Below, piece by piece: positions 11,968 through 28,761 of a stretch of DNA of 40,000 bases. The stretch is taken from positions 222,057 to 262,056 of the forward strand of contig NZ_CP017921.1 in assembly GCF_001889405.1 (NCBI RefSeq). Direction: 5' to 3'. Under the pieces are notes generated by a model that saw only the letters and a list, made by a program, of their open reading frames with translations, was not told where the DNA came from and made no database searches. A program made the position numbers and the translations under genes. Origin of the DNA: Methanohalophilus halophilus. GTDB taxonomy: Archaea; Halobacteriota; Methanosarcinia; Methanosarcinales; Methanosarcinaceae. The number at the start of each line of letters is the position of its first letter. Position 1 is the stretch's first letter.

Positions 11968-12112
11968 TGTGAAGTTTATACTATCGTATCAACATTTAAA
12001 TTTTTGTATTCATTTCAAAAAATTTTGCCGAATTCTAGTGTACTTATAACTAAAAAGAATAGGGCAGTATATAGTTAATAATAAAAAAAGCAAACACTTA
12101 GAAATTGTTTAT

Positions 12113-12587
12113 ATGACTTTACATTATGAGATAATTGCCGAAGAAAACATGTTGAAAATATTCCAGCCTTTATGCAATAACAAGATTGACTGCCACTACT
12201 TCCAATGTACTGGATAAATGCAAAGGTATTAATTATAACAAAGAACGGGAAGGACAGACCAAGCCATTAAGCAATACGATTCTTGAGTATGTGAATCATC
12301 CATAACATAAGTTTGAGGATTATATTGGTGTTCTTGAAAGGAAGCATATTGATATTGATGGTTTCGTGTATATTGGCAAAGAGGCCAATGAGATTGATGA
12401 GCAAACTATGGACGTTTCAAGGCCACAGAAATTCTTGAATAAGGGATATGTTATGCAGAAGATACTTGATTAATCTCAAAAACAGGATGAGGAATGGGGA
12501 GTAGATAGAAAGACGTTTCAGAGAATCAAGAAGAGGATAATTGAGAATAGTGACATTAAATTGAATACTGTTGCTGTAAAAAACTAA
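12113..12587 (+). pseudogene. Casposon PolB C-terminal fragment (frameshifted, internally deleted)
   Basis: Translations across frames give TLHYEIIAEE, SLYAITRLTATTSNVLDK, KPLSNTILEYVNHP*HKF and RKHIDIDGFVYIGKEANEIDEQTMDVSRPQKF. These are collinear with residues ~655-888 of the intact PolB at 21018-23684 (KLHYGIISEE, SLYAISQLTVSTSNVLDR, KPLSNTILEYIDHPEHKF, RKHIDIDGFVYIGKEANDIDEQELDVVRPQKF). The fragment contains stops, frameshifts and a large internal deletion. Confidence 0.85.
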
Positions 12588-12656
12588 CTTCATCTTTACT
12601 TAGTTAAAGTTAGTAATAAGAAAACGTTTTCTAATGTTAGAGATAATAAAAAAACT

Positions 12657-13532
12657 ATGACGCGGCTCAAAGAAAACACTATTAACCAATTATCACGCTT
12701 GATTTGTGGTGAGGATTTTGATTTTTTACCGTATCGCAAATCATCTCAATTAACTGATTTTTTTCAAGAGCTTGGTTTTGACTATACTCATGATGGATCT
12801 ACCCGAAGATATTGGGTAAGAGACGTGTTAAGCGAAATAAACACCGAAACACCTTCAGATTCCGTATTTCCGTCTCCAGAAATAATTGCTGTAATTGAAC
12901 ACATATTAAATCCAGTGAATTTTCTTGATCTTCCTGATTCTGAAGAAAAACAAAATTTAGGCATTGAACGTGTAAATAAGCTGTTATCTTTACAAGACTT
13001 GTTTGTTGAAAAAGAAGAAAACGGTGCTGTTCAACTTCATTCTAGAAAAGGTGACTTTGTATCTACATCAGTAAATAGGGATGAGAAAAAAAGAGTGATG
13101 ACTTTTTCTCCTTCTGTTTTTGAATTGCCTAAAGGTTCCACAATGAAAAACTGCGTTTCCATAATGATGCCTTTTTCGAAAGAATTTGATAATGTATATT
13201 CCGCAATAAAAGCAGCCTGTGTTAGCGAAGGAATACCCTTTCACAGAGCTGATGATTTCTGGAAAAATAGTGTCATAATTCAAGATATTTTTGAACTAAT
13301 ATGCCGTTCATCAATTGTTATTGTTGATTTTTCAAATAGAAATGAAAATGTATTTTATGAAGCTGGTATTGCCCATACTTTAGGAAAACATGTTATACCA
13401 ATAACTCAAAGTATCGACAGTATACCTTTTGATTTGAGACATCATCGGCATATAGTATATCTAAACAATGGCGAGGGTTTGAGAGGGTTAGAAAAAAAGT
13501 TGATTGACCGGCTAGCTTCTCTAAAAGAATAA
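12657..13532 (+). CDS. Two-domain protein: helical N-terminal domain + C-terminal TIR-like / nucleoside 2-deoxyribosyltransferase-like Rossmannoid domain
   Basis: 291-aa ORF. The C-terminal ~130 aa show the pattern VSIMMPFSKEFDNVY..I......G.PFHRADD...........I..SSIVIVDFSNRNENVFYEAGIAHTLGKHVIPI....D.IPFDL. This pattern is typical of TIR-like/deoxyribosyltransferase-like domains, with the conserved Glu in YEAG. Confidence 0.55.
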   Translation: MTRLKENTINQLSRLICGEDFDFLPYRKSSQLTDFFQELGFDYTHDGSTRRYWVRDVLSEINTETPSDSVFPSPEIIAVIEHILNPVNFLDLPDSEEKQNLGIERVNKLLSLQDLFVEKEENGAVQLHSRKGDFVSTSVNRDEKKRVMTFSPSVFELPKGSTMKNCVSIMMPFSKEFDNVYSAIKAACVSEGIPFHRADDFWKNSVIIQDIFELICRSSIVIVDFSNRNENVFYEAGIAHTLGKHVIPITQSIDSIPFDLRHHRHIVYLNNGEGLRGLEKKLIDRLASLKE

Positions 13533-13590
13533 GTTTTGGAGAGGCGATGTTATGAAAAAAGACAATTTCGTCTATAAAGGGGAGTAATAG

Positions 13591-13929
13591 ATGAGTCATG
13601 AAGAACATTCTAAAATAACAAACGGTATCTATGTGTCTTTTGGAGAATTTGTAATTAATTCTGAATTAGTTGTAGAAAATATGAAACTATGTATTTATGA
13701 AATGTTTAGTAAAAGAGTGCTTAGTAATACCTTTGAAGGGCAGCAGTACTTAAATCTACTTTTAGCAGATTTTACATCCGCCCCTGTCAGGATGAAAATG
13801 AGAGTACTCATGGTTGAATCCTATATTAAGTTATCCAGAGACAAAATTCTCTGGTTGTTTTTTATTATTCTGTATGAGAAATCAAAACAAAAAAATATAC
13901 AAAATATTCTCAAATGCAACCTTTCATAA
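13591..13929 (+). CDS. Hypothetical small protein
   Basis: 112-aa ORF preceded by a purine-rich SD-like ggggag about 8 nt upstream of the ATG. No recognisable motifs. Confidence 0.35.
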   Translation: MSHEEHSKITNGIYVSFGEFVINSELVVENMKLCIYEMFSKRVLSNTFEGQQYLNLLLADFTSAPVRMKMRVLMVESYIKLSRDKILWLFFIILYEKSKQKNIQNILKCNLS

Positions 13930-13990
13930 TACTCAATAATCTTCAGGCAATATAATTGTGAATTTTCCTATTTCGTTTATTGCAATATAG

Positions 13991-14156
13991 ATATTCTGCC
14001 GTATTCCACTGGGCAATTCTATCTCTCCTGCTGAAGCTAAAGAAATCGGGATTAATAGTAGGAGTACATTGAATAAATTGAAAAAATAGGGCGAAAGAAG
14101 GGCATTTTAATTTGAATACGAAGGAGATGAGGAAGATATCCTTAAGTTTAATTTAA
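13991..14156 (+). pseudogene. Second casposon PolB extreme C-terminal fragment (HTH tail), frameshifted
   Basis: Translation gives IPLGNSISPAEAKEIGINSRSTLNKLKK*. After a 1-nt frameshift it continues NRAKEGHFNLNTKEMRKISLSLI*. This aligns with the intact PolB tail ILGLTPEDARRIGIKHRSALAYLKKKAKEGELNFKSRNMERIMDAFM. Confidence 0.7.
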
Positions 14157-14176
14157 TTATTCTCTAATCTATTTAC

Positions 14177-15025
14177 TCAAATATGCTTATAAAGACCCAT
14201 TTTAATCTTCCCACCTTCACCGAATTCAAGCTCTGAAAAACTAACTCCTTCAAGAAAGGTCATATCTGAATCTTCATAGCGGATTATATCTGAAATCGGG
14301 AGCTTTTTTAGTTCCTTCCACAAATGAACTTCAGCAGTAAAACCTTTTAACTGATACATTTCAGTTTCAGAAATCTCCATTTTATAGATTTGGTCTTTAT
14401 CAGCAAATGCAACTTTCTTTTGAATTCGAATTCCATCTTCTGGAATATCTTTGAATATTTCACTTTGTTTTACAATTACTTCTTGATAGAACAGTTCGTT
14501 CAAAGATAACTTTTCATTATTGGACATGAATTTTTCTTCATCACTTTCAAATTTAATATTATTACCATTATAATCAACTAATTCAAAAGTAAGTATTTTT
14601 ATAATTTCATATTGCTTATGTATTACTGGTAGACAATCACCTAAAAACCAAGAATGGATATCTTCTTTGCCGATTTGACTTAACACTCGTGTTTCAATTC
14701 CATAATGTTTTGCCGTTGTTTTTGCTGGTTCTGTAAAATCGTTAGATGAAACAGCTATTACTTTTTGAACGTTGAGATTTTGACACTTTGTTGCTAATTG
14801 CTCAATCCACATTGAATCCTGTTTAGTATTTCGATCTCTGCATTCTATGATTATTGTTAAAGGTATGGAGCCAATGTTTGCTTTAATTGAGATATCAACT
14901 TCTCTTTGCTGCCCAGTAATTTTGTCGATTAGAAAATCTGGAGAGGTAATTTCATATTCGTCTTTTGTTAATATTTTATGTAGCAGAGAAACCGTTTCTT
15001 CTAATTCTTTCCCTTTTCGTGCCAT
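14177..15025 (-). CDS. Restriction-endonuclease-fold (Mrr-cat-like) protein with unknown C-terminal domain
   Basis: 282-aa ORF. The N-terminus reads GKELEETVSLLHKIL ... QREVDISIKA ... TIIIECRDRNTKQ ... VIAVSSNDFTEPAKTTAKHYGIE, which fits the D...(D/E)xK nuclease core of Mrr-type enzymes. The C-terminal ~140 aa are unassigned. Confidence 0.55.
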   Translation of the reverse strand: MARKGKELEETVSLLHKILTKDEYEITSPDFLIDKITGQQREVDISIKANIGSIPLTIIIECRDRNTKQDSMWIEQLATKCQNLNVQKVIAVSSNDFTEPAKTTAKHYGIETRVLSQIGKEDIHSWFLGDCLPVIHKQYEIIKILTFELVDYNGNNIKFESDEEKFMSNNEKLSLNELFYQEVIVKQSEIFKDIPEDGIRIQKKVAFADKDQIYKMEISETEMYQLKGFTAEVHLWKELKKLPISDIIRYEDSDMTFLEGVSFSELEFGEGGKIKMGLYKHI

Positions 15026-15180
15026 TAAAAATTAAATTAATTGTCATGGTTAAAAAAGTATCTGATAATGATTTCTTTTTAATGATAAATGTGGTTATTT
15101 GAGTTTTTTATTTTTGGGTAAAGGTGTACATTTTTTCTTAGGAAATTAAAAAAATGGTTGTGCGTACAGAGTGCAAAACG

Positions 15181-15211
15181 CCGTACACTTTTTTCGCGTT
15201 GTATATATCCC
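15181..15211. repeat. Degenerate casposon terminal inverted repeat (right end of decayed distal element)
   Basis: ccgtacacttttttcgcgttgtatatatccc aligns without gaps to the intact right TIR gcgtacaaaaaattggagataactatatccc (19/31 identical). The cgtaca block and the terminal tatatccc sit at the same spacing. It directly abuts a TSD copy. Confidence 0.6.
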
Positions 15212-15225
15212 AGAAAAATAGTGCG
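15212..15225. repeat. Target-site duplication copy 1 (agaaaaatagtgcg)
   Basis: Exact 14-bp match to 19588-19601 and 28530-28543. It lies between a TIR-like right end and a TIR left end. Confidence 0.85.
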
Positions 15226-15387
15226 GGGATATAGTTATCTTAGATTTTTTGTACGGTATCTGTATTCTTTGTTCTTACTTAAAATAGAATGATTTATTTT
15301 AATAGTGGTTTTATATATTTGACAATATATTAATTCAAAATATGTTTTGGTTTAAGAGAAATTATTTTGTACAAGTATATTTAATGA

Positions 15388-15750
15388 TTGGGTATGAAGA
15401 AAGATGAACTTTTTATTAGAGAGTTTATTGTTGGATTAGGCTTTGTAAGTGGTTTATGGATTGCTGTTGGAATAAATCCAGAATCCCTAATAATTGAACA
15501 ACTAGTAAAAATTGGGAATACATTAACACCAAAACATAATTTTGGGTTTCTATTAATACTACCAAGCATAACTACTTTAATATCAATTATAAGTGCGTGG
15601 TTTTATGGTGGAGTTTTGGGTATGATTGCTATATTACTTGCTTTTATTAGTGGCATACTAATAATTCATTTTACCATGATAGCATCTGTTTTTTTGATGC
15701 TTTCTTTATTATTGGCTTCATTATCTGTAGATAATAATTATACTTATTGA
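15388..15750 (+). CDS. Small integral membrane protein (about 3 TM helices)
   Basis: 120-aa ORF with hydrophobic stretches: VGLGFVSGLWIAVGI, FGFLLILPSITTLISIISAWFYGGVLGMIAILLAFISGILIIHFTMIASVFLMLSLLLASL. Confidence 0.55.
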   Translation: MGMKKDELFIREFIVGLGFVSGLWIAVGINPESLIIEQLVKIGNTLTPKHNFGFLLILPSITTLISIISAWFYGGVLGMIAILLAFISGILIIHFTMIASVFLMLSLLLASLSVDNNYTY

Positions 15751-15764
15751 ATTGATTCATGGCC

Positions 15765-16070
15765 TTAATAAACATAATTAATAAGATAGTTATTGAGATT
15801 AGATATGGTTTTGTATTGTAATTCTATTAAGTCAGGTAATTTTTTAACAATTGGTAGTTCTTGGCTATAAATACTTGTGGGATATATGACATTTCTAAGC
15901 CTTGATTTGCTATTACTTTTTGTTCTTATCGGATAACGTGATAATATTGAATGAGTTAGTGGGATTTTTGCTAAAACATAAAGTGGTCCCAATACACTTA
16001 TGAATTTAAGGGCCTGCAATATTATTTTTTTTATATCAATCGAAAGTTGCAGTAATTGTGAGTCATTCAA
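15765..16070 (-). CDS. Hypothetical protein downstream of the HEPN gene
   Basis: 101-aa ORF located 6 nt downstream of the HEPN gene stop on the same strand. It has no recognisable motifs and is not an MNT nucleotidyltransferase (no GS...D.D motif). Confidence 0.4.
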   Translation of the reverse strand: MNDSQLLQLSIDIKKIILQALKFISVLGPLYVLAKIPLTHSILSRYPIRTKSNSKSRLRNVIYPTSIYSQELPIVKKLPDLIELQYKTISNLNNYLINYVY

Positions 16071-16076
16071 TTCAGA

Positions 16077-16664
16077 TTAAATATTAACAGATCCCAATTG
16101 TTCTTTATCTATATATTCACATTTCTCAAAATTACTAACTAATTGATTTATATTGTCTTTCCATTGTTTTAGATCTATCGAAGATTGATCTAAGGATTCA
16201 ATACTTTTTTTAATAGAAATTTCTAATTCAGAGACACTCTGAAAAATATCATTTATCTCGCGGGTTGATAAGAAATAAGGATTACGCTTAGATTTTTGCA
16301 TCTTGCCAATTTCCCGCAAGCCATTTTCACAGTGTACTATATTTTCTTCAGGTGATATTTCAATCAAAGAAAATATTTCATTAATTTCTGGAATATGATT
16401 AAGTAATTTAGCAGATCTTTGATATTTTTCTTTTTGGTCAATAAGCATTCTTTTATATATTTCCATAGGATCGTGTCTGATTTCTAGCATGGATTCTTCA
16501 TCGAATTTTCCAGAAGATAAAGCAAGTGCTTTGTTTGCCTTTTCCACACTTTGGGCAAAGAAAAAGATTGATTGTGGATAACATTTATTTTCATATAATA
16601 CAACTGAAGATTTTAAATCAGATTTTGCGAGTTTTACAAATTCTTTTACATATTTCATACTCAT
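16077..16664 (-). CDS. HEPN domain protein
   Basis: 195-aa all-helical ORF. The N-terminal signature AKSDLKSSVVLYENKCYPQSIFFFAQSVEKANKALAL is the classic HEPN helix 1-2 pattern (A..DL..A........y.....a.Q..EKa.KA). Confidence 0.65.
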   Translation of the reverse strand: MSMKYVKEFVKLAKSDLKSSVVLYENKCYPQSIFFFAQSVEKANKALALSSGKFDEESMLEIRHDPMEIYKRMLIDQKEKYQRSAKLLNHIPEINEIFSLIEISPEENIVHCENGLREIGKMQKSKRNPYFLSTREINDIFQSVSELEISIKKSIESLDQSSIDLKQWKDNINQLVSNFEKCEYIDKEQLGSVNI

Positions 16665-16705
16665 TCTCTCGTATATAATTATGCCATATTTATACCTTCA
16701 CTCAA

Positions 16706-16786
16706 AAAACACAACAAATTTATAATTCATCATATAAATCTTACTGCATAATAATTGTGTGATAAATTATAAATTTGTTGTGTTTT
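16706..16786. promoter_or_regulatory. Perfect 22-bp inverted repeat in the divergent intergenic region (operator or RNA hairpin candidate)
   Basis: aaaacacaacaaatttataatt (16706-16727) and its exact reverse complement aattataaatttgttgtgtttt (16765-16786), separated by 37 bp. It lies between the divergently oriented HEPN gene and the 754-aa gene. Confidence 0.6.
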
Positions 16787-16958
16787 ATTAAGTGTGGGGA
16801 ACAGATTTCTATAGAAATTACTACCTCTGGATAAACAACACAGATAGATATTATAATGATAGATTTAAATGAAAAATGCTTAATAAAGACCTACAAAATA
16901 TATAATATGAAGAAGAATGAAATTTTAATTATGGAATATCAGATACAATTTACTTGGA

Positions 16959-19223
16959 TTGAATAGCATGGGCACATATAAAAAAGAGACGCATAGCAAA
17001 GACTTATATGAGCTATATAAGCATGCAGAGAAAAACACAAAATCCGATTTCATTTCTATTTTTCGATGGTTGCGTAATCAGAATCAAATACTTGGCATAA
17101 ACGATTTACTCAAACTTCAACAGTATAATTCTCCTAACTATGGACATTGGGAAGTACCACTTTCAGTTATCCAATTATACAATATATTGCTTAATTCGAG
17201 AAAGTCTAAAAATATTCTTGATCCAGTAGGGAAATTAGGTTTGTTAGGGGGCATAATCTCAGAAAATGAAAATGTTCAAAATGTCGACATTGTAAGCAGT
17301 TTGCATGAATCTGAAGAAATAATACAATCAGTAAATATGCCAAAAGTTTCGCTTACTATTGGAAATATTATTGATCTCAAAGATAATTTAAAAGATAACT
17401 ACGATGCAATAATAGGCATACCACCAATAAATAACAAGGGGGATGTCAATAATAATTTAGTGGAAACTGCAAAAATGTTGTCCAAGGAAGGAATAATTGC
17501 TTTTGTAGTACCACCTCGCATTGCTTGGGATAAAAGCAAAAAATCAATAAAAGTGTCTCTAGAAAACAACGGATTATACCTGTCAGCATTATTGCAATTC
17601 CGTCCGGGAACATTTACTACAACAAATATACCTTTTTATCTTGCAATTTTTGAAAAAGTCAATCATGATACTTTGTTCGTAGGGGAAGTTCCTGAAAAAT
17701 ATGATGAATATGATGAATTGATAAAATGCTTTTCAAAAAGAAAAGAGGGAGAAACTATAAATCAAGGAAGATTGGTAGACCCCAATAATTTTAATGGGAT
17801 CAAATCTCTCAAAGCAAAAGAAAGAGCAAAAAAACTTGCTTCAGAAAGAGGACTTAAACCCATTCCTTTTGATAAGGTAGTTCACACAATAAATACTCCT
17901 AAAAAGAGAGGAAAAGATTTTGAAAGATTTGATGAACACCCAGATGCGGTTTATTTGCCTCAAATGGCAACAACAGAAGCAAAAACTCATCAAAACGATC
18001 TATCTCCGAAATTGAAATCATATTTGCAACTGATAGTCAATCATGATGTTGTTTTACCTGAATATTTAGCTGAATGGCTTAATACAACATTGGGTATTGC
18101 CTTTCGGGAATCAGCAATGCAAGGAATAACTATACCCAGAATAAATAAGAGCAATCTTCTATTAAGTAACCTTTACTTGCCTTCTGTTATAGATCAGCGT
18201 AAGGCATTAGATGCTCTTCTTTCAATTCAAGAAATGAAGTCTGATCTAGATGAGCTTGGGTCCAAAATATGGTATCAACCTTTAAATGTGTCAGAGGTCA
18301 TAACATCTTTAGAAAAAATTAATAGAGAGGAAGTATTTGGCGATTGGATAGAATCTCTTCCATACCCCCTCGCTTCAATTCTTAGATCATATGATACAGT
18401 AGACCAAACAGACAAAGACAAATATGAACGGCTCTTGCTTTTTTATGAAGGATTTGCTGAATTTTGCGCAACGGTGCATATTAGTGCATTTAAGAAACAG
18501 CCAGCTATTTGGGAGCCATTGAAAAATAAAATAAAACAAGTAATGGCTGAGAATAATTTTTCATTTGAAAAACCAACTTTTGGTTTGTGGGCCTCTATAA
18601 CAAGTATATTGGCGAAAGAATTACGTTCAATGATTAATGGAAAACAAGATGATAAAGATGCTACAAATGCACTTTATGAAACAGCTGATTTAGAACCATT
18701 AGAAATATTGTCATCCAAATCTTTAGTTAATTTAATAAACGAAACTAATAAAAAACGCAATGATTGGAGTGGTCACACAGGGGCTGTTTCCCAAAAAGAA
18801 GCTCGTGAAAGACATGACCACCTGAAAAACCAACTATCAAATTTGCATAAAATAATAGGTGATCTCTTCCAACAATATAAGCTTGTGGAGGCCGAGCCAT
18901 CAGGAATTGATGCTTTGACAGAGTCAAAGTTTAAGTGTAAAGTTAAATTAGTAATGGGTTCAAATCCTCTTCTTGAACGTCAAACATTGCAATTGAGTAT
19001 GACGTTAATTACAGGGTCATTATATATGTATAACATTGGAAATGATAGGGTTCTTGAACTGGTCCCATTTATTCAGGTCACTGAATCTCCACAATCTGCT
19101 AGTTACTTCTATAATAGAGTGGAAAAAGAAGGGTTACGCCTTGTTTCTTATCAAGTTATTAATGAATCAGAAATATTTAGAAAAAATCAGTACCTAGAGG
19201 ATTTGATAAAAAGTTTTACTTAA
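16959..19223 (+). CDS. Fusion protein: degenerate N6-MTase-like domain + HsdS-like TRD + C-terminal helical domain with HEPN-like Rx5H motif
   Basis: 754-aa ORF (TTG at 16959, first ATG at 16968). It has a Rossmann-like ILDPVGKLGLLGG and an atypical motif IV, AIIGIPPIN (I instead of N/D/S before PP). An HsdS-like segment reads GITIPRINKSNLLLSNLYLPSVIDQRKALDALLSIQEM. The C-terminal helical region contains KKRNDWSGHTGAVSQKEARERH. Confidence 0.55.
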   Translation: MNSMGTYKKETHSKDLYELYKHAEKNTKSDFISIFRWLRNQNQILGINDLLKLQQYNSPNYGHWEVPLSVIQLYNILLNSRKSKNILDPVGKLGLLGGIISENENVQNVDIVSSLHESEEIIQSVNMPKVSLTIGNIIDLKDNLKDNYDAIIGIPPINNKGDVNNNLVETAKMLSKEGIIAFVVPPRIAWDKSKKSIKVSLENNGLYLSALLQFRPGTFTTTNIPFYLAIFEKVNHDTLFVGEVPEKYDEYDELIKCFSKRKEGETINQGRLVDPNNFNGIKSLKAKERAKKLASERGLKPIPFDKVVHTINTPKKRGKDFERFDEHPDAVYLPQMATTEAKTHQNDLSPKLKSYLQLIVNHDVVLPEYLAEWLNTTLGIAFRESAMQGITIPRINKSNLLLSNLYLPSVIDQRKALDALLSIQEMKSDLDELGSKIWYQPLNVSEVITSLEKINREEVFGDWIESLPYPLASILRSYDTVDQTDKDKYERLLLFYEGFAEFCATVHISAFKKQPAIWEPLKNKIKQVMAENNFSFEKPTFGLWASITSILAKELRSMINGKQDDKDATNALYETADLEPLEILSSKSLVNLINETNKKRNDWSGHTGAVSQKEARERHDHLKNQLSNLHKIIGDLFQQYKLVEAEPSGIDALTESKFKCKVKLVMGSNPLLERQTLQLSMTLITGSLYMYNIGNDRVLELVPFIQVTESPQSASYFYNRVEKEGLRLVSYQVINESEIFRKNQYLEDLIKSFT

Positions 19224-19587
19224 TGAAAGAAGGGAGTTATGAAGATTCTAACTATTACCAAATATAATATAAAAAGTACTCTTAGACAGTTTCCAAAAAA
19301 ACAATCATTAATGATGAAAATATATTCTTTTCATCAGCATTTCGAGTATCCATGCACAAAGTGATAAATGTATTTTGAGTAGTAGGTCCTTTCAAAAATA
19401 GATTAATGCAGTTTGGTCAAATGTTGCTTTTTATTAGTTAGTAAGTATAAAATACGAATTAATATAATTTTTTGGTGGTTGTATTTTTCAATTCTACCTA
19501 TAACCCCGATTTTATGTGTGAGTGATAAAATTCGAACCAAAACTTTCTAAAATTCTGAGTATCTTATTTTCAGGATACCTATATCCC

Positions 19588-19601
19588 AGAAAAATAGTGC
19601 G
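19588..19601. repeat. Target-site duplication copy 2 (agaaaaatagtgcg)
   Basis: Exact 14-bp repeat. It separates the right end of the non-autonomous element from the left TIR of the intact casposon. Confidence 0.85.
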
Positions 19602-19632
19602 GGGATATAGTTATCTCTAATTTTTTGTACGC
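19602..19632. repeat. Casposon left terminal inverted repeat
   Basis: See the casposon feature (19602-28529). This TIR matches the reverse complement of 28499-28529 at 30/31. Confidence 0.9.
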
Positions 19633-19845
19633 TAAGTATTTACAGACTTATTTAAATTAACTACTGGGTTAATCTTTTAAATTGAAACCCAGATAAATGT
19701 ACAGAACGTTCAATTCACATCTTCTTTTAAAAGAGTGTCACTTTTTCGCAAAAGGAACATTTTTATAATAAACGGTTTATGATCCATTATCATTATACTT
19801 TTTTATAAAATGATGTAATATATCATGTTAAATATAGTTTGATTA

Positions 19846-20787: not shown

Positions 20788-21017
20788 ATATCATTATGAA
20801 ATTGAATATATTTCAAAAACATCTTTCCAGAAAACTTCAAGGACTGCAACAATTAAAATTACAGTTTCATCGCGAAAAGCTTTATTGTTTAAATTATTGA
20901 TTTTTTCAAAATTTATTTCAAATGCTTTGTTAATATCTTGTATTCATGGATTTTATCATTTTGAGACATAAACAAAATAATGTATGTCAACACTTATTGT
21001 TTTATTGATTCAGAGCT

Positions 21018-23684
21018 TTACATAAAAGCATCCATAATTCTCTCCATATTCCTACTCTTAAAATTCAACTCTCCTTCCTTTGCTTTTTTCTTCAAGTAAG
21101 CCAAAGCACTCCTATGTTTAATTCCAATCCTTCTGGCATCTTCAGGAGTTAAACCAAGAATAAACTTCTCCACTGCTTTTCCATCAATGAACTTTTGAGG
21201 TCTTACAACATCCAACTCCTGCTCATCAATATCATTGGCCTCTTTACCAATATACACAAACCCATCAATATCAATATGTTTTCTTGCAAGAGTGCCAGTA
21301 TCACCCCCAAACTTATGCTCTGGATGATCTATATACTCAAGAATCGTATTGCTTAATGGCTTGAAATAGTAAGATCCTTGCCTGACTTCTCCAGTCTGAT
21401 AATCAATAAAAGACTCATAAACTATCTTCTGATAATCCTTAGTAAAAGGTGCTAAAGGCTTGACAACCTTGTCATTTTCTTCTGTTGTCTGAAACCCAAC
21501 CAGAAAGAAATTGAATGGTTTGATCTGTTCTCTCCATTCCTTGACAGCATTAAGATCCTTGAATCTATCCAATACATTGGAAGTACTGACAGTAAGCTGA
21601 GAGATTGCATACAGGCTAGAATATTTCTCAACAATATCTTCCTCAGAAATAATCCCATAATGTAACTTGAGTATATCTTGCCAAATTTCAGCCTGCCAAT
21701 CTTCAACATCCTTTGGAAACGGATTTGTTAAATGACCAAGCCCATGAAGTTTGTAAGATCTCTCTCCTTCCATGAACTCAATTTTATCCTTGTTTAAGTT
21801 GTAGAGTGCATATCTCTTGGAAGAGATCCCATAAAACCACATATCCTCTTTCTCAGGCTTCAATAAAGGAATATCCAGAGCATAAGGATTCAATGGCTGG
21901 AAATAATCAACTATCTCCTGTGCATTTTCAGGAGGAACAAAGATTGAATCTGTATCCATATAAGCATGAGTTCCACCAAGTTCTTTGAGTCTGGCTTCAG
22001 CCATAGCCAGAAAAAGCCTTGAACCTGCTGTAATCATGACTGCCACAAAAGGATGATAGAAATTACCTGGCTTTTCAAACCTATTCTCTGAAGTACTGAA
22101 ATCATCAAGCCCATAAACCTGAATATCACTTTTCTTATCTTCTGGATTAAGTTCAATAAAGATCCCATAACTCATTGCGTTAACAAGAATCTTGATGGCC
22201 TGTGCTCTGCTCTTTAGATGTTGATATTCAGGATCTTTTTTATCAAGACTTTTCATATCCTGTTTTATCTTTTGCCTTTCCTCAACCATTATCTTGGTTA
22301 GGCTTTCTTTGGATGGATCAATATTTATTCCAAGTATCTCCTGAATGTTCAAGTCATCCTGAATCCCAACAGGAACAAACTTGACAGCCTCTATGATCTC
22401 AGGGGTCTTTCCAGTTAATAGGACAGAACCGATAACATCAGGCAAAGCATACCATAAACCATCTTTAGAACTTACATGATTTAATCCAACATTATAACTC
22501 TCATTCTTGCCTTTGTAATCCATCCTTACAGGCAATATATCCTCATCTGGTTTCAATTTAACAAGGATATTGAAATGAGGCCAGTTATCTGGATTTTGTA
22601 AATAATCAAGATCTATATTGGAAAGAATCTTTTTTGCTTCCTCTGTTGCATCTTCAGTCTCAATCCTGTCAGCAATCAAAAATGGCCAGAGATCCAACAT
22701 TAAAGTAATAGTAGGATACATACTGGTAAAATCAAGAACTGTAACTTGGGTTGGTGTTTTCCTGATCTTGCATTCACACCTGCCACCAAAATAAGCAGTC
22801 ATTATATTTCCTAACATCTCAGGAGAGAAATCAGGATTCTTTTCTAAAAATGGGTTTATTCCAATTTGTTTCATGGCATGTTTACCAAGAGAAGCAGCAC
22901 TAAACACTCTGGTTATGGGTATATCAATACCATAAAGATCCAGTTCTTTCACAAGTTCCCTGTAAACTTCAAAAGTAGTTTTGACATCAGTTACAAGATA
23001 GTCAATATACTTCTCAGTAACTCGGCCATGTTTTATATTCTTCTTTTTCTTAATGTTGGTATTGAGCCTCTCTCCTACCTTATCAAGTGAAATATGATTC
23101 TTTGATTGAAGGAGTACTTCAGCCAGTTTTTGAGCATCTAAAAAGTATCCCCCAAAATACTCTTTACCCTTGTTTTGCTTGGTTGTTGTGAATTTGAAGG
23201 AATAAGCAGTACCAAGTTTTTTGATAACAATTGGGGGTTTAACTCTATCATCTGACAGAGTAAGAGTAAACCCACCTTTGTTTTTCCCTCTGGAATTTCC
23301 AGATCTCTTGGCTATCCTGCTTATATCAAAGGCCAGATTGAATCCAACACATAAAGTTTGGAAATCATATACCTCTGTATAGAACACATTATCTACAAAA
23401 TCAGATAGAGTATAGATAGATATAGTATGTCTAGATGCATAGATATTCAAGGCTCTTGTTTCCCTTACATCCAGCATTGAAGGATCATAAAATAACCCTT
23501 CATGCTGAATATAGCCATCCTGATATATCTGGAAATATCCAATTTTCATGTTTTGGTACTGGTCTGTTGTAGTCTCAGTATCAAAGACCAATACTCTATC
23601 ATGTCTCAAAGGTGTGGTTGGAGTTTCACCCTTCCATGCTTTCTTTTCTTTGTGGGTGTATCCCCTCACAGCAACCTTAGTCAT
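21018..23684 (-). CDS. polB: Protein-primed family B DNA polymerase (casposon PolB)
   Basis: 888-aa ORF with Exo I (VLVFDTETT), Exo II (GFNLAFDISRI), Pol motif B (KILVNAMSYGIF), Pol motif C (HAYMDTDSIFV) and a C-terminal HTH-like tail. Confidence 0.93.
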   Translation of the reverse strand: MTKVAVRGYTHKEKKAWKGETPTTPLRHDRVLVFDTETTTDQYQNMKIGYFQIYQDGYIQHEGLFYDPSMLDVRETRALNIYASRHTISIYTLSDFVDNVFYTEVYDFQTLCVGFNLAFDISRIAKRSGNSRGKNKGGFTLTLSDDRVKPPIVIKKLGTAYSFKFTTTKQNKGKEYFGGYFLDAQKLAEVLLQSKNHISLDKVGERLNTNIKKKKNIKHGRVTEKYIDYLVTDVKTTFEVYRELVKELDLYGIDIPITRVFSAASLGKHAMKQIGINPFLEKNPDFSPEMLGNIMTAYFGGRCECKIRKTPTQVTVLDFTSMYPTITLMLDLWPFLIADRIETEDATEEAKKILSNIDLDYLQNPDNWPHFNILVKLKPDEDILPVRMDYKGKNESYNVGLNHVSSKDGLWYALPDVIGSVLLTGKTPEIIEAVKFVPVGIQDDLNIQEILGINIDPSKESLTKIMVEERQKIKQDMKSLDKKDPEYQHLKSRAQAIKILVNAMSYGIFIELNPEDKKSDIQVYGLDDFSTSENRFEKPGNFYHPFVAVMITAGSRLFLAMAEARLKELGGTHAYMDTDSIFVPPENAQEIVDYFQPLNPYALDIPLLKPEKEDMWFYGISSKRYALYNLNKDKIEFMEGERSYKLHGLGHLTNPFPKDVEDWQAEIWQDILKLHYGIISEEDIVEKYSSLYAISQLTVSTSNVLDRFKDLNAVKEWREQIKPFNFFLVGFQTTEENDKVVKPLAPFTKDYQKIVYESFIDYQTGEVRQGSYYFKPLSNTILEYIDHPEHKFGGDTGTLARKHIDIDGFVYIGKEANDIDEQELDVVRPQKFIDGKAVEKFILGLTPEDARRIGIKHRSALAYLKKKAKEGELNFKSRNMERIMDAFM

Positions 23685-24018
23685 GTTTCATCAACTCATG
23701 TCCATAACTGAGCAACTGATCCCCTATACCCCTGAGTAATGCACCAACTGAGATAAACCAAAATCCCCTCTGTTCAATAGGTTTGGCCTTTTTTGACCTT
23801 TTTTTAGGACTTACCTTGTTCTGTTCTGCTGTAGTTTTGAAATGGCAGCTCTTGCATAGAGGAATTGTTTCATCAGAATTGCATCTACCATAAACATGAT
23901 GCATCTCTATGACAGAAAGATCATCCTCTCCACATTCAACACAACAAAGAGATGTTTGCTTGTTTCTCTTCTGCTTCCTTGTAGCCTTTAGATATGTTTC
24001 TTTATCCATCTGTATCAC
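23677..24018 (-). CDS. HNH endonuclease
   Basis: 113-aa ORF with CCVECGEDDLSVIEMHHV ... TIPLCKSCHFKT (HNH/zinc-finger signature). It overlaps the PolB start by 8 nt, which suggests translational coupling. Confidence 0.85.
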   Translation of the reverse strand: MIQMDKETYLKATRKQKRNKQTSLCCVECGEDDLSVIEMHHVYGRCNSDETIPLCKSCHFKTTAEQNKVSPKKRSKKAKPIEQRGFWFISVGALLRGIGDQLLSYGHELMKHD

Positions 24019-24023
24019 CTCCT

Positions 24024-24665
24024 TTAGCTCTTGTAAATCTCCAGAAATTCAGGTTCTTCAATAGTTTCTCCAATTTCATACAGTCTCTCAAGGCTGGTCT
24101 CAAGTCTGTACTCGTTACCATCAGCATCCTTTATCTTCATATCCTTGAACTTCTCAAGACCTGAAGGATCTCCTGTTTTCAAGGCCTTCTGTACAGCAGC
24201 AAAATATTTTCCAATCCTTGATCTATCTCTGGAATTGGTGACAACAATACTGGTTACTCCTTCATCTTCAGAGTAGATCAGCATTTCAGACTGAATAGAA
24301 TCAGTTTTTGTGACCTGCCATCTGCCACCCTCTTTTTCCAGATGTGTTCCAAGATGCTTGAGAGCAAACTGTTTGTTTACTCCAAGTTTACTGGTGGCCT
24401 CACTCAGAGTTTTACCATGTCTCATTTTCCTCAAAATTTCAAGGGATAGGTTTCTATCCCTTTTCTGACTTGAAGACAGGTTTTGCCATACTGTATTGCT
24501 GAGGTCATAATCACTTATCTTCAGATTCCTTAATTGCTTCAGACTTTTATCAGGGGAATACTGATGTTTCCTGATTATCCCCTTTGCATACCTGGAAGTC
24601 CTTGATTGAGCATTGAGCCACTCACCATAGGTTCTGTGCTTTCTGGAGAAACGTGGTCTTCCCAT
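24024..24665 (-). CDS. HTH DNA-binding protein (casposon core-associated)
   Basis: 213-aa ORF with an HTH-like segment KTLSEATSKLGVNKQFALKHLG. It is in the same operon as HNH and PolB. Confidence 0.6.
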   Translation of the reverse strand: MGRPRFSRKHRTYGEWLNAQSRTSRYAKGIIRKHQYSPDKSLKQLRNLKISDYDLSNTVWQNLSSSQKRDRNLSLEILRKMRHGKTLSEATSKLGVNKQFALKHLGTHLEKEGGRWQVTKTDSIQSEMLIYSEDEGVTSIVVTNSRDRSRIGKYFAAVQKALKTGDPSGLEKFKDMKIKDADGNEYRLETSLERLYEIGETIEEPEFLEIYKS

Positions 24666-24805
24666 TATTTCTCAGCCTCCCAGAGTTTCAGTAATGCTAT
24701 CCTGATAACTTCAGCCTGAGAGCATCCAAACTTATCTGACAACTGTACAAGTGTCTCCTTGAGATAAGGAGAAAGTGTTGTTATTATTCTTTCACTTTCA
24801 TTCAT
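24665..24805 (-). CDS. Small ribbon-helix-helix (CopG-like) protein, absent from the supplied ORF track
   Basis: Manual translation of the minus strand gives MNESERIITTLSPYLKETLVQLSDKFGCSQAEVIRIALLKLWEAEK* (46 aa). This is a beta-strand followed by two helices with the typical S..EVIR.AL pattern. Its TAA overlaps the ATG of the next gene by 1 nt (ATAATG). Confidence 0.5.
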   Translation of the reverse strand: MNESERIITTLSPYLKETLVQLSDKFGCSQAEVIRIALLKLWEAEK

Positions 24806-24939
24806 TGGTTTTCACCAATAGACTGTATGTACAGCCATACTGATATTAACAATGATATTGATTTTAATACTAAAATGAGCATTAATGATATAAACCATAA
24901 CAAATATGATATTATATTAGATAGTGAGAGGTAGAAATA

Positions 24940-25848
24940 TTGATACAAAATGAGGCTGATTTTGAGGAGGAAGTTGTTCAGTATTTAAACAAGAATGGCA
25001 AGATGCGAAGAGAGCAGTTGATTAAAGTACTTATTGAGGCGCATACACAAACAAACGAAAAAGGAGACAAATTTGTAGATGGTGGATATAGTAAACCCAC
25101 AATTAATAGAAAACTTGGAGATATGCTTGGATCTGGTAAAATCATAAGATTGAATTACCACCAGCTTAAAAACTATGGCTTTTCTGAAGATGATGGGAGG
25201 GCAACATATCTGTTTACTGAGGAAGGGCTACGATTGAAGACACATATTGATGAGGTACTCAAGCTTCTTGCTTCAGATGATGAAATTGATAAACAGATTG
25301 CTTTGAAAGAATTAAACCGATACAGTGAAATTTACTCTTTTGATGAAACTCAGCTAGATTTAATCGTGCAAAATCTAGCCTCCAAGAACGCAGAATTGAC
25401 AAACAAGTTTCTTACTACTCTCAAAAATTACATCATCAACAGAGGAAAAGAGCCGACGGATAAAAAAGCCTTGTTGAACGCTCTAAAGATCGTGCTGGAG
25501 AAGCATGGAGAACCAGCCGGAAAAAACAAGGTCACTAGAGAAGTGGCCATCCTTTTACTTAGCCACTATAAAGACGAATATGTACTTGACCAGCTCATCA
25601 AAGATGCAAATGCCTTGGATAATCCTCTAGAAGTAGAAGAGGATTATGCCCATGACCCTTCGATGATTGCTGATATTATCATAAAAAATCCTTCAAGACT
25701 ATTTGAGGCTGAAAGGCAATTGACAAAAGAAGGAAAATATGATGCTTCTCAGTTCATTTCAAATATAAGGGGTCGGTGCATGAGGGCATTTCGAATGAAT
25801 GATGCTGAAAAAGCAGAGATTCAGAAAAAACTAGAAGAGGAGTTATAA
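24940..25848 (+). CDS. Hypothetical protein, N-terminal winged-helix-like domain + helical repeats
   Basis: 302-aa ORF with a TTG start preceded by gagagg. The N-terminus reads VVQYLNKNGKMRREQLIKVLIEA ... YSKPTINRKLGDMLGSGKIIRL, which is wHTH-like. Its stop overlaps the Cas1 start (TAATG). Confidence 0.5.
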   Translation: MIQNEADFEEEVVQYLNKNGKMRREQLIKVLIEAHTQTNEKGDKFVDGGYSKPTINRKLGDMLGSGKIIRLNYHQLKNYGFSEDDGRATYLFTEEGLRLKTHIDEVLKLLASDDEIDKQIALKELNRYSEIYSFDETQLDLIVQNLASKNAELTNKFLTTLKNYIINRGKEPTDKKALLNALKIVLEKHGEPAGKNKVTREVAILLLSHYKDEYVLDQLIKDANALDNPLEVEEDYAHDPSMIADIIIKNPSRLFEAERQLTKEGKYDASQFISNIRGRCMRAFRMNDAEKAEIQKKLEEEL

Positions 25849-27050
25849 TGAAACTCCTTTTATTGAATGGTCATGGAATCGATATGCGGGTGAGCGGGGC
25901 AAAACTGCATATCAAGGATGGTAGGTTCACTACTGCTGAAGATCCTCAGAAGTATGTATTCCATCCCAAAAGGGTAGATGTGGATAATGTTGTTATCTAT
26001 GGGCAGAGTGGCAATCTTACAATTGAGGCTATCAGATGGTTGATCAAACATAATGTTCAAATTACAGTTCTGGATTGGAATGGAAAACTCCTTACTACAA
26101 TGTTACCTTCTGAAAGTACCAATGTCAAAACCAAGTTTGCTCAGTATCATGCTTTTGAAGATGAACAAACCAGAGTTAAACTGGCAAGGAAGTTTATTGA
26201 GGCCAAGATCTCCAAATCTGAGAGTGTTCTTGAGTATTTAAAACAGAGATATCCTGAGATTGAGTTTGATTTTTCAGAAGATCTTGATAAACTTAAAAAG
26301 ACAAAATCTGTCAGGGAAATTCTTGGTATTGAGGGTGGAGTTGCATGGAAGTACTGGAAAGAGTATGCTAAAGCAATTCCTGAAAAATATGAGTTTAATT
26401 CAAGGGTTGATGAATACAGGAGGCCTGTGGCAGCAGGAGATAAGGTTAATGTAATGCTGAATTATGGTTACTCACTCCTTGAGGCTGAATGTTTAAGAGC
26501 CATTAATACTGCTGGTCTTGATGGACATGTAGGCTTCTTGCATGAAATGAATCCAAGTAAATACAGTTTAGCCTATGACCTTCAAGAGCCTTTCAGATTC
26601 CTTGTTGAACTTACAGTTCTGAATTTGATTGAAAGAGATGTGATGGATAAACAGGATTTTATCAGAACTGAGAACTATGGTTTAAGGTTTAAACCGACTG
26701 GTGCTAGAAAATTAACCTCTGAGTTTAACGTTATGTTAAACAGGAGTTTAACGTATAAAGGTAAAAACTCATCATGGAGTTATATCTTGTTGTTGAAAAC
26801 AAGAGAACTGGCTTTTTATCTTACGGGTAGAAGGAAGACTTTGGAGTTTGTCGATCCAGTCTATAAGGTTGAAAGGGATGATTCTGAGGAGTTGAGGCAG
26901 AAGATCCTCTATATGCCTTACTCTGAGTGGAAGAAGATGGGTTTTTCTAAGGGTACTCTTCATTACATGAAGCAGAATGCTAAGTCTGGTAAGCCTTTTA
27001 GTTTAAATGCCCATGTGAGGGAGAGGTTGGAGATGTGGGAAGTACATTAA
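25848..27050 (+). CDS. cas1: Cas1-family integrase (casposase) with C-terminal HTH
   Basis: 400-aa ORF with Cas1 signatures: GIEGGVAWKYW (catalytic Glu region), NVMLNYGYSLLE, GLDGHVGFLHEM (His) and SLAYDLQEPFR (Glu/Asp). A C-terminal HTH-like tail (WKKMGFSKGTLHYMKQNAKSG) is typical of casposases. No cas2, other cas genes or CRISPR array are present in the window. Confidence 0.92.
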   Translation: MKLLLLNGHGIDMRVSGAKLHIKDGRFTTAEDPQKYVFHPKRVDVDNVVIYGQSGNLTIEAIRWLIKHNVQITVLDWNGKLLTTMLPSESTNVKTKFAQYHAFEDEQTRVKLARKFIEAKISKSESVLEYLKQRYPEIEFDFSEDLDKLKKTKSVREILGIEGGVAWKYWKEYAKAIPEKYEFNSRVDEYRRPVAAGDKVNVMLNYGYSLLEAECLRAINTAGLDGHVGFLHEMNPSKYSLAYDLQEPFRFLVELTVLNLIERDVMDKQDFIRTENYGLRFKPTGARKLTSEFNVMLNRSLTYKGKNSSWSYILLLKTRELAFYLTGRRKTLEFVDPVYKVERDDSEELRQKILYMPYSEWKKMGFSKGTLHYMKQNAKSGKPFSLNAHVRERLEMWEVH

Positions 27051-27163
27051 TTAAGTATATTTTTTTACACAAAAAGGTGAATATAAGCAACTATATTTTT
27101 TATATAATTTTATATCTTATAGACTACAAAAATGATTTATAGAATTTTGTTTCATTTATACAT

Positions 27164-27838
27164 ATGCATAGTTTGGAAGTAGTCACTCTTTTTTTACAAG
27201 CAATTGTAACTCTGTATGCATTTTTCTTTGCAGTATATGCGCTTGGGATAAAAAAATATGCTAAAAATATTACTTATCATTCTTATTTTGACGCAATATC
27301 ATTAGCAGTTTTAAGTTCTATATTTATATATACTTTAATGCTGTTCATTTATTCACAAGATTTAAATTTATTATCTTTTTATATTCATATCAATATATTA
27401 GAAATTATATTGAGTTTTATAGAACGTTCAAATATTAATTATTTTAATGTTGCATATAGTATATTCATTTTTATAATCGGATTGATGTTTATATATGCAA
27501 AGATTTTACTGGATTTGAATAAGTCAGAAGAAAGATTTTCCCAAAAAATAAGTAATATTCAGCTAGAAAAGGGGAAGGTAAAACCATTATTTAAAATAAC
27601 TTATTACATCTTTAAATATTACTTGTCTAACATGGGGATCTATGGAAATTTAGTATTTATTTTAATGTTAATTTTTCTTGTTTTACAATTTCCAGAGATA
27701 TCCTTTTTCGGATTAATTACATTTATTATTGGAGTTTATTTGTTTTTAGGGGCTTTTATTTTTATAACAACATTAATCATATTTTGTGTTTCATTTTGTA
27801 AAGTAAGACTACTCCAAAATAGACTGAAGCATCTCTGA
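27164..27838 (+). CDS. Polytopic membrane protein (casposon cargo)
   Basis: 224-aa very AT-rich ORF with at least 5 hydrophobic helices. No family assignment. Confidence 0.5.
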   Translation: MHSLEVVTLFLQAIVTLYAFFFAVYALGIKKYAKNITYHSYFDAISLAVLSSIFIYTLMLFIYSQDLNLLSFYIHINILEIILSFIERSNINYFNVAYSIFIFIIGLMFIYAKILLDLNKSEERFSQKISNIQLEKGKVKPLFKITYYIFKYYLSNMGIYGNLVFILMLIFLVLQFPEISFFGLITFIIGVYLFLGAFIFITTLIIFCVSFCKVRLLQNRLKHL

Positions 27839-28048
27839 GGCCACATAAACATAAAAAGAACTTACATAGTATAATTATTTTTAATTATGCAGATGCTTTG
27901 AAAACGTATTATTCTTGTTCAATTACTTAAATAATATTTGAGATAATATTACAAAATCTAGTGCTTTTAAAGATAACTTTAAGTAAAATATTATTTCTAA
28001 AAATATTACAAAAGATTCAAATAAATTCTTATAAAAATATATTAGATA

Positions 28049-28435
28049 TTATTCTGCTCGAACTTTATCAATTTTTAGGTTGATTTTTCCATTTTTACTT
28101 TTTAATTCATGCCATTCGCTGTTTGTTAAAGTTACAGAATGAGTTCTTTTCTTTTGCACATTCGCCCCATCCCTAACTGTACCAAAATATATTGTATTCG
28201 TTTCTAAGATTCTATTATCGAAAAGAAGTGAATAATCAACCTGGACATTATCAGCATCCATTGTGCCAATATTTGTAGTATCGAAATAACATTCCACAAT
28301 TATATTGTCATTTGATAATGTGTTATATTCATAAGTGTTTTGTCCATCAACAATAACTTCATAATTACCTGTACAACCTGATATAAATACTATGCAAATA
28401 ATGGATAGAATGAGTGTCGTTTTATTACAAAACAT
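28049..28435 (-). CDS. Putative secreted/lipobox protein (casposon cargo)
   Basis: 128-aa ORF with an N-terminal signal-like helix ending in FISGCTG (lipobox-like Cys). Confidence 0.5.
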   Translation of the reverse strand: MFCNKTTLILSIICIVFISGCTGNYEVIVDGQNTYEYNTLSNDNIIVECYFDTTNIGTMDADNVQVDYSLLFDNRILETNTIYFGTVRDGANVQKKRTHSVTLTNSEWHELKSKNGKINLKIDKVRAE

Positions 28436-28498
28436 ATATTTTTAATATGTACTCCTAATATATATATTTTTTATATGCCCTAGATTTTACATAAAATA

Positions 28499-28529
28499 GC
28501 GTACAAAAAATTGGAGATAACTATATCCC
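28499..28529. repeat. Casposon right terminal inverted repeat
   Basis: gcgtacaaaaaattggagataactatatccc is the reverse complement of 19602-19632 with one mismatch. Confidence 0.9.
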
Positions 28530-28543
28530 AGAAAAATAGTGCG
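28530..28543. repeat. Target-site duplication copy 3 (agaaaaatagtgcg), overlapping the tRNA-Leu 3' end
   Basis: Exact 14-bp repeat. Positions 28540-28543 are the last 4 nt (CGCA on the gene strand) of tRNA-Leu. Confidence 0.88.
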
Positions 28544-28719: not shown

Positions 28720-28761
28720 GTCCTAAGCCCTGCGCCTTTGGCCTGGCTGGGCAACCCCCGC
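28720..28761 (-). pseudogene. Orphan 5' half of a second tRNA-Leu(UAG)-like gene
   Basis: The minus-strand sequence GCGGGGGTTGCCCAGCCAGGCCAAAGGCGCAGGGCTTAGGAC matches tRNA-Leu positions 1 to ~41 with 3 substitutions. Similarity stops just after the anticodon loop. No matching 3' half (no gcggggg on the plus strand) occurs in the 95 bp before the intact tRNA. Confidence 0.7.

Follow-up and report, generated by a model that had tools for sequence, protein, structure and literature searches.

The window analysed here is a 40,000-nt stretch of the Methanohalophilus halophilus genome (contig NZ_CP017921.1, positions 222,057 to 262,056), in which casposons, transposons whose integrase (casposase) is a homologue of Cas1, form a tandem array at the 3' end of a tRNA-Leu(UAG) gene. 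We propose that this array was probably built by serial integration at the leader-proximal position, the leader being the tRNA 3' end that adjoins the casposon target, and that its older layers were worn by deletion. At least five casposons are represented: an intact one next to the tRNA gene (element A) and remnants of at least four others, whose terminal inverted repeats (TIRs) are of differing subtypes. An earlier note on this DNA had described three elements (an intact casposon, a cargo-only element and a distal zone of PolB fragments) that were stacked by successive insertions at the tRNA-proximal target and formed a clean chronological record. The mechanism put forward there is very probably right in outline but simplified; neither the three-element model nor the clean chronology holds.

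The tRNA gene and three copies of the target-site duplication (TSD) anchor the array:

28539-28624, minus strand: tRNA-Leu(UAG), identified with ARAGORN; its 3' end serves as the leader and also contributes the initial 4-5 nt of the target
28530-28543: TSD copy 1, tRNA-proximal, exact match
19588-19601: TSD copy 2, exact match
15212-15225: TSD copy 3, exact match

The 14-bp sequence AGAAAAATAGTGCG occurs exactly three times in the window (at 15212, 19588 and 28530), and no further copy with two or fewer mismatches is found there, 0.42 being expected from shuffled sequences. A fourth copy at the distal end of the array was not found in the window either, where a tolerance of three mismatches yields matches at chance level only. 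All three copies abut casposon termini in the form ...TATATCCC / TSD / GGGATATAG..., just as the earlier note had it, and the junctions at 15204-15240 and 19580-19616 each consist of a TIR end, one TSD common to both neighbours and the start of the next TIR, which is the arrangement of a tandem array. On the tRNA strand, AGAAAAATAGTGCG reads CGCACTATTTTTCT, in agreement with the published target consensus of Methanosarcina mazei, in which CGCA is followed by an AT-rich stretch overlapping the final nucleotides of tRNA-Leu; the T-arm and the CGCA junction can be read directly at the proximal copy. GC content is 27-38% across the island (~10 to 28.5 kb) vs. 41-47% in the flank. The locus is not a CRISPR array, as the repeats of 14 bp are spaced 4.4-8.9 kb apart and the casposase is the sole cas gene in the window.

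Element A occupies the interval between the two TSD copies nearest to the tRNA gene:

19602-28529: element A (8,928 bp), an intact casposon of family 2 with TIRs and core genes
19602-19634 and 28497-28529: TIRs of element A, 33 nt, 97% complementary
21018-23684, minus strand: PolB, 888 amino acids (aa), DNA_pol_B_2 E = 6.8e-15
23677-24018, minus strand: gene at the HNH position, a Cys-rich open reading frame (ORF) assigned by position and homology, its Pfam HNH match (E = 0.34) not being significant
24024-24665, minus strand: conserved 213-aa gene of the core
24940-25848, plus strand: conserved 302-aa gene at the HTH/HEAT position, without a Pfam match and assigned by position and by 30-36% identity to casposon genes at the same position
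25848-27050, plus strand: Cas1 casposase, 400 aa, Pfam Cas_Cas1 E = 4.6e-68
19846-20787, 27164-27838 and 28049-28435: cargo ORFs of element A

All five core genes are uninterrupted and in the canonical family-2 order, and both their order and their homology agree with those of more than 20 other casposons. Its Cas1 keeps every column that is invariant in 18 homologues, and the closest named relatives are the casposases of Methanococcoides, with 74% identity. The TSD at 28530-28543 overlaps the tRNA-Leu end at 28539, which places the insertion at the tRNA 3' end. Element A has the structural features of a family-2 casposon, i.e., Cas1, PolB and the other core genes, TIRs with a 14-15-bp TSD and a tRNA 3'-end site, and the earlier claim that an intact casposon lies nearest to tRNA-Leu is borne out by the near-perfect TIRs and the uninterrupted core. 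A relative with ~90% nucleotide identity (94% and 90% aa identity for Cas1 and PolB, respectively) is found on metagenome contigs L087-L090 at a different gene, tRNA-Leu(UAA). No second identical copy of element A is present in the M. halophilus genome, where the other Cas1 relic is 91% identical at the nucleotide level. Element A, intact as it is, appears to be the youngest insertion of the array.

The three target copies differ in what precedes them. On the tRNA strand, the distal copies read ...TAACTATATCCC/CGCACTATTTTTCT and the proximal copy reads GGTTCGAATCCCACCCCT/CGCACTATTTTTCT, so that upstream of the distal copies a TIR end stands in place of the tRNA T-arm. The expectation that tRNA sequence would be missing at the distal copies is thus confirmed, and published casposases need such sequence: in vitro, the casposase of M. 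mazei requires the TSD and 30 bp of tRNA-Leu, the TSD alone being a poor target, while that of Aciduliprofundum boonei requires the TSD and 18 bp (PMC5137440; PMC6977970), and the leader requirement was demonstrated structurally in 2020 (Hickman et al., PMC6977970). By analogy with these casposases, the one encoded by element A may have the same requirement at this locus.

As a substitute for a strain series, arrays were compared across related loci (~90, designated by L-numbers), which were collected from Methanosarcinales/Methanomicrobiales genomes through a Cas1 profile search and from metagenome contigs. In all 12 arrays in which intact and decayed copies are mixed (the window, L005, L007, L008, L009, L011, L014, L015, L016/L038, L017, L042 and L087), whatever is intact lies next to the leader and the fragments lie behind it; the order from the leader in L009, for instance, is intact, intact, deleted. 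This polarity is observed directly across genomes, and the probability of finding it in 12 of 12 arrays if position were random is estimated at less than ~5e-4. Where the proximal element is decayed (L023, L043, L054, L056 and L078), no intact element lies behind it. The leader-proximal element of L006 (10001-12916) has an intact Cas1, with no PolB detectable in the 10 kb upstream.

Element A is followed, away from the tRNA gene, by a unit at 15226-19587 that consists of a larger part, B-main, and a short junction:

15226-19506: B-main, a coreless remnant with heterotypic TIRs
15226-15259: left TIR of B-main, "TTTTTTGTACG" subtype
15388-15750, plus strand: 120-aa membrane ORF of B-main
15765-16070, minus strand: 101-aa ORF of B-main
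16077-16664, minus strand: HEPN gene of B-main, E = 9.7e-06
16959-19223, plus strand: 754-aa methyltransferase (MTase)/S-like fusion of B-main
19477-19506: right TIR of B-main, "ACAACC" subtype
19507-19520, minus strand: TSD-like 14-mer CACACATAAAATCG, behind the pseudo-leader
19521-19539, minus strand: decayed tRNA T-arm/acceptor-like "pseudo-leader" GGTTCGAATTTTATCACT
19540-19587, minus strand: solo TIR of 48 nt, "GATACT" subtype, whose homology to like ends stops exactly at nt 48

Neither tblastn nor tblastx finds a casposon core gene in 15226-19587. The earlier description of a cargo-only element is right in this respect but misses that the unit is a composite, with heterotypic TIRs, an orphaned restriction-modification (R-M) gene and an 81-bp insert. 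It lacks the matched TIR pair of a non-autonomous casposon, as the subtypes of its ends differ and an extra inner TIR ends at 19506. Homologues of the 754-aa protein, the best of which has 48% identity, are normally embedded in type I R-M operons. Because the gene is an orphan here and large casposons carry such operons, B-main is best read as the remnant of a larger casposon. Its HEPN pair is homologous to cargo of the casposon in L014, and no further copy of 15226-19587 is found among the 90 related loci.

The 81-bp junction unit at 19507-19587 is made up of a TIR of ~50 nt, a decayed leader and a 14-nt TSD-like sequence, followed by the next TIR, and its architecture recurs at three other loci:

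L007, 1066-1151: counterpart of the 81-bp junction unit
L017, 13956-14040: counterpart of the 81-bp junction unit
L061, 3502-~3590: counterpart of the 81-bp junction unit

Candidate origins of the unit are a nested insertion into a pseudo-target and the capture of an outer end. The 48-nt solo TIR is 89.6% identical to a TIR from a second M. halophilus array. That the pseudo-leader could be an intrinsic part of the "GATACT" TIR was rejected, as ten aligned ends lose conservation at nt 48, where the leader starts; that it could be the native 3' half of a relic tRNA located upstream of the intact tRNA gene (described below) was also rejected, as only ~15 of 26 positions match.

Distal to TSD copy 3 lie two further remnants, R3 and R4:

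14018-15211: R3, the proximal end of a second-lineage casposon
15181-15211: TIR of R3, "TATATA...GTGTACG" subtype
14177-15025, minus strand: Mrr-like nuclease gene of R3, Mrr_cat E = 1.9e-05
14018-14161, plus strand: C-terminal fragment of a type-2 PolB in R3, the final ~40 codons
12113-13929, plus strand: R4, a type-1 PolB relic followed by two ORFs
12113-~12600, plus strand: type-1 PolB pseudogene of R4, corresponding to aa 672-870 of intact PolB
12657-13532: 291-aa ORF of R4, with weak similarity to TIR effectors (here the protein domain), E = 1.4e-05 over 66 aa
13591-13929: 112-aa ORF of R4
12062-12095, plus strand: possible degenerate TIR GGGCAGTATATAGTTAATAATAAAAAAAGCAAAC, weak, 12/14 positions in a relaxed terminus scan, with no adjoining TSD

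Core genes distal to element A are limited to two PolB pseudogene fragments, as had been reported for this zone, except that they belong to two lineages and are not of one kind. The R3 fragment has 80-84% nucleotide identity to the PolB 3' ends of L009, L019, L020, L042 and L056. The R4 relic is 74-87% identical to the PolB of element A, in inverted orientation, and its damage can be read directly (one frameshift, a deletion of 51 aa and two stop codons). Element A has its PolB on one strand and both relics are on the other; casposons at tRNA-Leu are known in both orientations (Krupovic et al. 2016, PMC4779613). The end at 15181-15211 had been taken for a degenerate TIR matching 19 of 31 positions. 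The count is correct against the TIR of element A, but the end is in fact well kept, with 29 of 31 positions matching TIRs of another lineage (e.g., L047 16619, L016 and L009). Preservation therefore does not simply fall with distance from the tRNA, as had been suggested: the newest element is proximal, but much of the apparent decay is lineage difference together with large deletions that fused neighbouring elements. Pfam does not support a TIR domain in the 291-aa protein, the C-terminal half of which is 58% identical to the product of a casposon-remnant gene in L078.

The TIRs from the ~90 related loci have a common terminus, GGG(A/T)(A/T)ATAG(G/T)TA, after which they diverge into at least five subterminal subtypes, and intact elements at these loci always possess a matched pair. 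Five subtypes are found in the window, i.e., "TTTTTTGTACG", "GATACT", "ACAACC", "TATATA" and the weak "GCAAAC" end, in addition to the two lineages of PolB relics. The differing lineages of the remnants are likewise observed directly. Deletions across element junctions best explain the heterotypic ends and the PolB stubs that border on foreign cargo, and the insertion record is scrambled by deletions and fusions. Locus L042 combines intact core genes with heterotypic TIRs.

Based on this anatomy, and on what is published for other casposases, we propose that the casposase would recognise the tRNA T-arm/acceptor "leader" together with the adjoining 14 bp, and that staggered strand transfers would duplicate the 14 bp. 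After insertion, only the tRNA-joined copy would constitute a full target, so the next casposon would enter between the tRNA and the resident and displace the resident outward. At least five casposons of differing TIR subtypes may have arrived serially in this way, with element A the youngest. The older ones would have lost their Cas1/PolB modules through internal and junction-spanning deletions, so that chimeras with heterotypic TIRs, solo TIRs and C-terminal stubs of PolB would remain, while their surviving cargo (HEPN, Mrr-like nuclease, MTase/S fusion, DRT4-like reverse transcriptase (RT) and possibly a type I R-M system) would make the tail of the array a defence island. What we infer is the sequence of events at this locus, along with its history of deletions.

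Serial integration at the tRNA-proximal copy agrees with the absence of the T-arm at the distal copies and with the polarity of 12/12 arrays, but several observations weigh against it. Through the 81-bp unit, another decayed leader and TSD are found on the distal side of element A, an arrangement not predicted by simple stacking; at least one event therefore did not just target the tRNA-proximal copy, and the chronology of the record is not a clean one. The only M. halophilus hits are 100% identical to the window, so the order of arrival at this locus is inferred and not directly observed. The window is identical over the 21.6 kb compared to M. halophilus GCA_003722055.1 (contig RJJG01000001.1, locus L082), its proteins are recorded under M. 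halophilus accessions in three assemblies that seem to be of a single strain, and contigs from four public sequencing runs are also 100% identical to it, breaking at repeats, i.e., at tRNA copies and at 12289 within the PolB relic. No match came from exact-protein look-ups with the SOUL protein, Cas1, the 754-aa protein or PolB, and for AlkD and the RT every contig recovered was 100% identical to the window and from M. halophilus. The three TSD copies are still identical although the distal elements are wrecked; either deletion accounts for most of the decay or the series as a whole is young. The sole tandem event reported in vivo (M. mazei, 2023) arose when a mini-casposon integrated at the MetMaz-C1 "left TSD"; as the right TSD reads ...TGCG, this left copy may be leader-distal. 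It is a single event. Finally, what appears to be the ancestral allele survives only as its 5' 42 nt and is not the allele of the anchor tRNA, and part of the array may have been imported already assembled, in which case some of its history predates the M. halophilus lineage.

These points bear differently on the alternatives. Entry of casposons at any TSD copy, with the proximal position of element A a mere coincidence, would be compatible with the M. mazei tandem and with the low-specificity integration by de-tagged casposase in vitro (Beguin et al. 2016, PMC5137440), and one locus cannot separate chance from rule; with intact copies leader-proximal in every one of the 12 arrays and the distal copies devoid of the sequence required in vitro, we consider the lack of a positional rule improbable. 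Segmental or tandem duplication of one insertion with its target, followed by divergence of the copies, would account for the 37-bp junction TATATCCC-TSD-GGGATATAGTTATCT that is identical at 15204 and 19580. Beyond the TIR termini and the TSD, however, the units have no sequence in common, their TIR subtypes differ, their sole internal similarity is the inverted PolB fragment of R4, and the second PolB relic is from another lineage. The earlier view that the tandem units are not segmental duplicates is thereby upheld, and we give duplication hardly any credence. The unit at 15226-19587 could also be a functional non-autonomous casposon that transposed whole through its heterotypic ends: its flanking TSDs are identical, both outer termini start with GGGATATAG, an element in L017 with perfect outer TIRs holds a like internal unit (inner TIR, TSD-like sequence and pseudo-leader), and clean elements of cargo alone, bounded by matched TIRs, are present in L087 (10805-13564) and L092 (8184-11855). 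Identical flanking TSDs are expected within an array anyway, though, and the unit has neither a second copy nor a close relative of its genes, the MTase/S gene is an operon orphan and intact elements always have matching TIR pairs; a mobile composite is thus rather unlikely.

The strongest competitor to assembly in place is suggested by a relic half-tRNA beyond the intact gene:

28720-28761, minus strand: 42-nt relic covering the 5' half (positions 1-42) of a tRNA-Leu(UAG); it lies upstream of the intact tRNA at a distance of 95 bp

This relic is identical to the tRNA-Leu(UAG) of the related contig L094 (42 nt, compared by eye), and synteny with L094 (92% nucleotide identity) ends exactly at tRNA position 42. 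The intact tRNA region is only 84% identical to that of L094 over 115 nt (tRNA, TSD and TIR start), or ~87% over the tRNA alone; it represents another allele of the tRNA, whose stem changes are compensatory. L094 has only one small casposon remnant at its tRNA-Leu(UAG), a possible orthologue of R4; the PolB fragments of this remnant and of R4 are 81% identical and in the same orientation, while the neighbouring cargo differs (NERD vs. the 291-aa ORF). The 42-nt duplication is also found in L005 and L008. In L005, a 6.3-kb archaeal phage-type integrase element at 13049-19406 is flanked at both ends by tRNA-Gly positions 1-42 as 42-nt direct repeats and is on the other side of a tRNA region that holds a casposon. 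The relic thus bears the signature of either an integrase-type event at the anticodon loop or a joint import of the tRNA and part of the array. Under the latter, the stack and its tRNA-Leu allele would have been assembled in a donor genome and entered as a block at the anticodon loop of the native tRNA-Leu, as the exact end of synteny, the divergence of the intact tRNA from a relic that matches L094, the single remnant in L094 and the integrase element in L005 would all allow. An integrase element that duplicated tRNA positions 1-42 and was later cut to 95 bp explains the relic equally well, the native 3' half (GTGGGTTCGAATCCCACTCCCCGCA) is absent from the window, a metagenome scan for the tRNA 3' end joined to the TSD gave no match and hence no donor, and element A still resembles a separate recent insertion. 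We therefore regard import of the assembled array as unlikely, albeit the least so of the alternatives, and serial leader-proximal integration as the probable course.

The array reaches left of 12113, because a stretch at 10066-10329 matches the interior of another casposon, and further genes of the window lie outside 12113-28543:

10066-10329: non-coding stretch, 74% identical to the interior of the decayed casposon L012
10366-11967, minus strand: DRT4/UG-class antiviral RT, PADLOC Drt4 E = 2e-194, Pfam RVT_1
1307-9098: type I R-M system
4085-5587: 500-aa gene between hsdR and hsdS, PADLOC candidate family PDC-M11A, E = 3.5e-152
38589-39815: TnpB/Cas12f-like (IS200/IS605-type) gene in the host flank

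The DRT4-like RT shares the low-GC island and probably represents cargo of an old casposon. Large casposons of 15-16 kb (L014, L016/L038, L042 and L087) carry complete type I R-M operons, and because of this the R-M system at 1307-9098 may be old cargo as well. Defence genes are indeed clustered here (DRT4-like RT, type I R-M with PDC-M11A, Mrr_cat and HEPN), as the earlier note had proposed in calling the stack a defence island, although the RT is outside 12113-28543 and the call of a TIR-like effector is weak.

The second M. halophilus casposon array, L092 (FNMU01000002.1 1-13092), is wholly decayed, has the TSD CGCACCAAATTCTT at three junctions and holds a Cas1 fragment with 92% identity to the Cas1 of element A and a HepT/MNT toxin-antitoxin pair. 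The cargo-only derivatives in L087 (10805-13564) and L092 (8184-11855) are 2.8 and 3.7 kb in size, without Cas1 or PolB; their TIR pairs are ~90% matched and their flanking TSDs are identical (L087) or nearly so (L092). Casposon ends away from a functional tRNA are preceded by GGTTCRAAT...CCCTCGCA-like relics or by decayed whole tRNA-Leu genes (L005, L008, L011, L013, L021, L022, L044, L047, L050, L052, L057, L061 and L078). "Intergenic" casposon targets of these genomes therefore resemble relics of tRNA 3' ends.

The locus provides a natural multi-layer case of the predicted leader-proximal stacking and, with the 11 other arrays, comparative support that strengthens the mechanistic link between casposition and CRISPR adaptation. 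Dead casposons give rise to defence islands in archaea, since their cargo persists after the transposition module is lost. The pseudo-leader junctions and the relic half-tRNA hint at additional processes at such hot spots, such as nested insertion, end capture or cohabiting integrase elements. More speculatively, casposon arrays in Methanosarcinales/Methanomicrobiales might in general be strictly polar chronicles to which portable solo TIR-leader-target units are added at some junctions. Though we hold this generalisation to be quite doubtful, it would, if true, mean that casposons could copy or carry leader-target units to new positions, and the portable unit would form a natural link between the target site of a transposon and an array of leader and repeats.

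The core idea is already published, and the finding itself leaves current understanding unchanged. Krupovic et al. described tandem casposons at tRNA-Leu in 2016 (PMC4779613), with one copy inactivated, solo TIRs, RT cargo and integrase elements living alongside; insertion upstream of a previous casposon and the analogy with CRISPR were proposed in the same year (Beguin et al., PMC5137440); and tandem formation was shown in vivo in 2023. The literature searched contains no link between casposons and M. halophilus and no description of natural non-autonomous casposons. The locus is an unusually deep, defence-laden example, and some novelty is found only in the comparative polarity result and the pseudo-leader junctions.

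Among known systems, the arrays of Methanosarcina sp. 2.H.T.1A.3/.6/.8/.15 (PMC4779613), recovered here as L015, are the most directly comparable: adjacent elements have a common 14-bp TSD at the tRNA-Leu 3' end, with CGCA and an AT-rich stretch, and both those arrays and the window include an inactivated copy as well as RT and other cargo. The window differs in its host genus, in a Cas1 with only 67% identity and in depth, with at least five layers of differing TIR lineages instead of two or three, the old layers being reduced to cargo and stubs. The leader-dependent model (PMC5137440; PMC6977970) defines the target as the TSD and the upstream tRNA, as found in the window, and already draws the analogy to the CRISPR leader and repeat; it consists of biochemistry and prediction, whereas polarity is seen here in natural arrays (the window and 11 loci), and the pseudo-leader junctions fall outside it. 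Tn7 at attTn7, an analogy drawn by Krupovic et al. 2016 (PMC4779613), also inserts repeatedly and site-specifically next to a conserved gene, so that old copies and cargo form an island; its transposase, however, is unrelated to the casposase, which is a Cas1 homologue, and casposons differ further in being self-synthesising via PolB and in targeting tRNA 3' ends. CRISPR arrays grow by Cas1-Cas2 with spacers of ~30 bp, whereas casposon inserts are 3-16 kb in length and have TIRs, and the casposon array is without Cas2 and transcript-guided interference and keeps a record that is eroded by deletions. What the two have in common is a homologous integrase, a short repeat that is duplicated with each insertion and, on the proposed reading, a specificity for the leader-proximal junction that yields a polar order.

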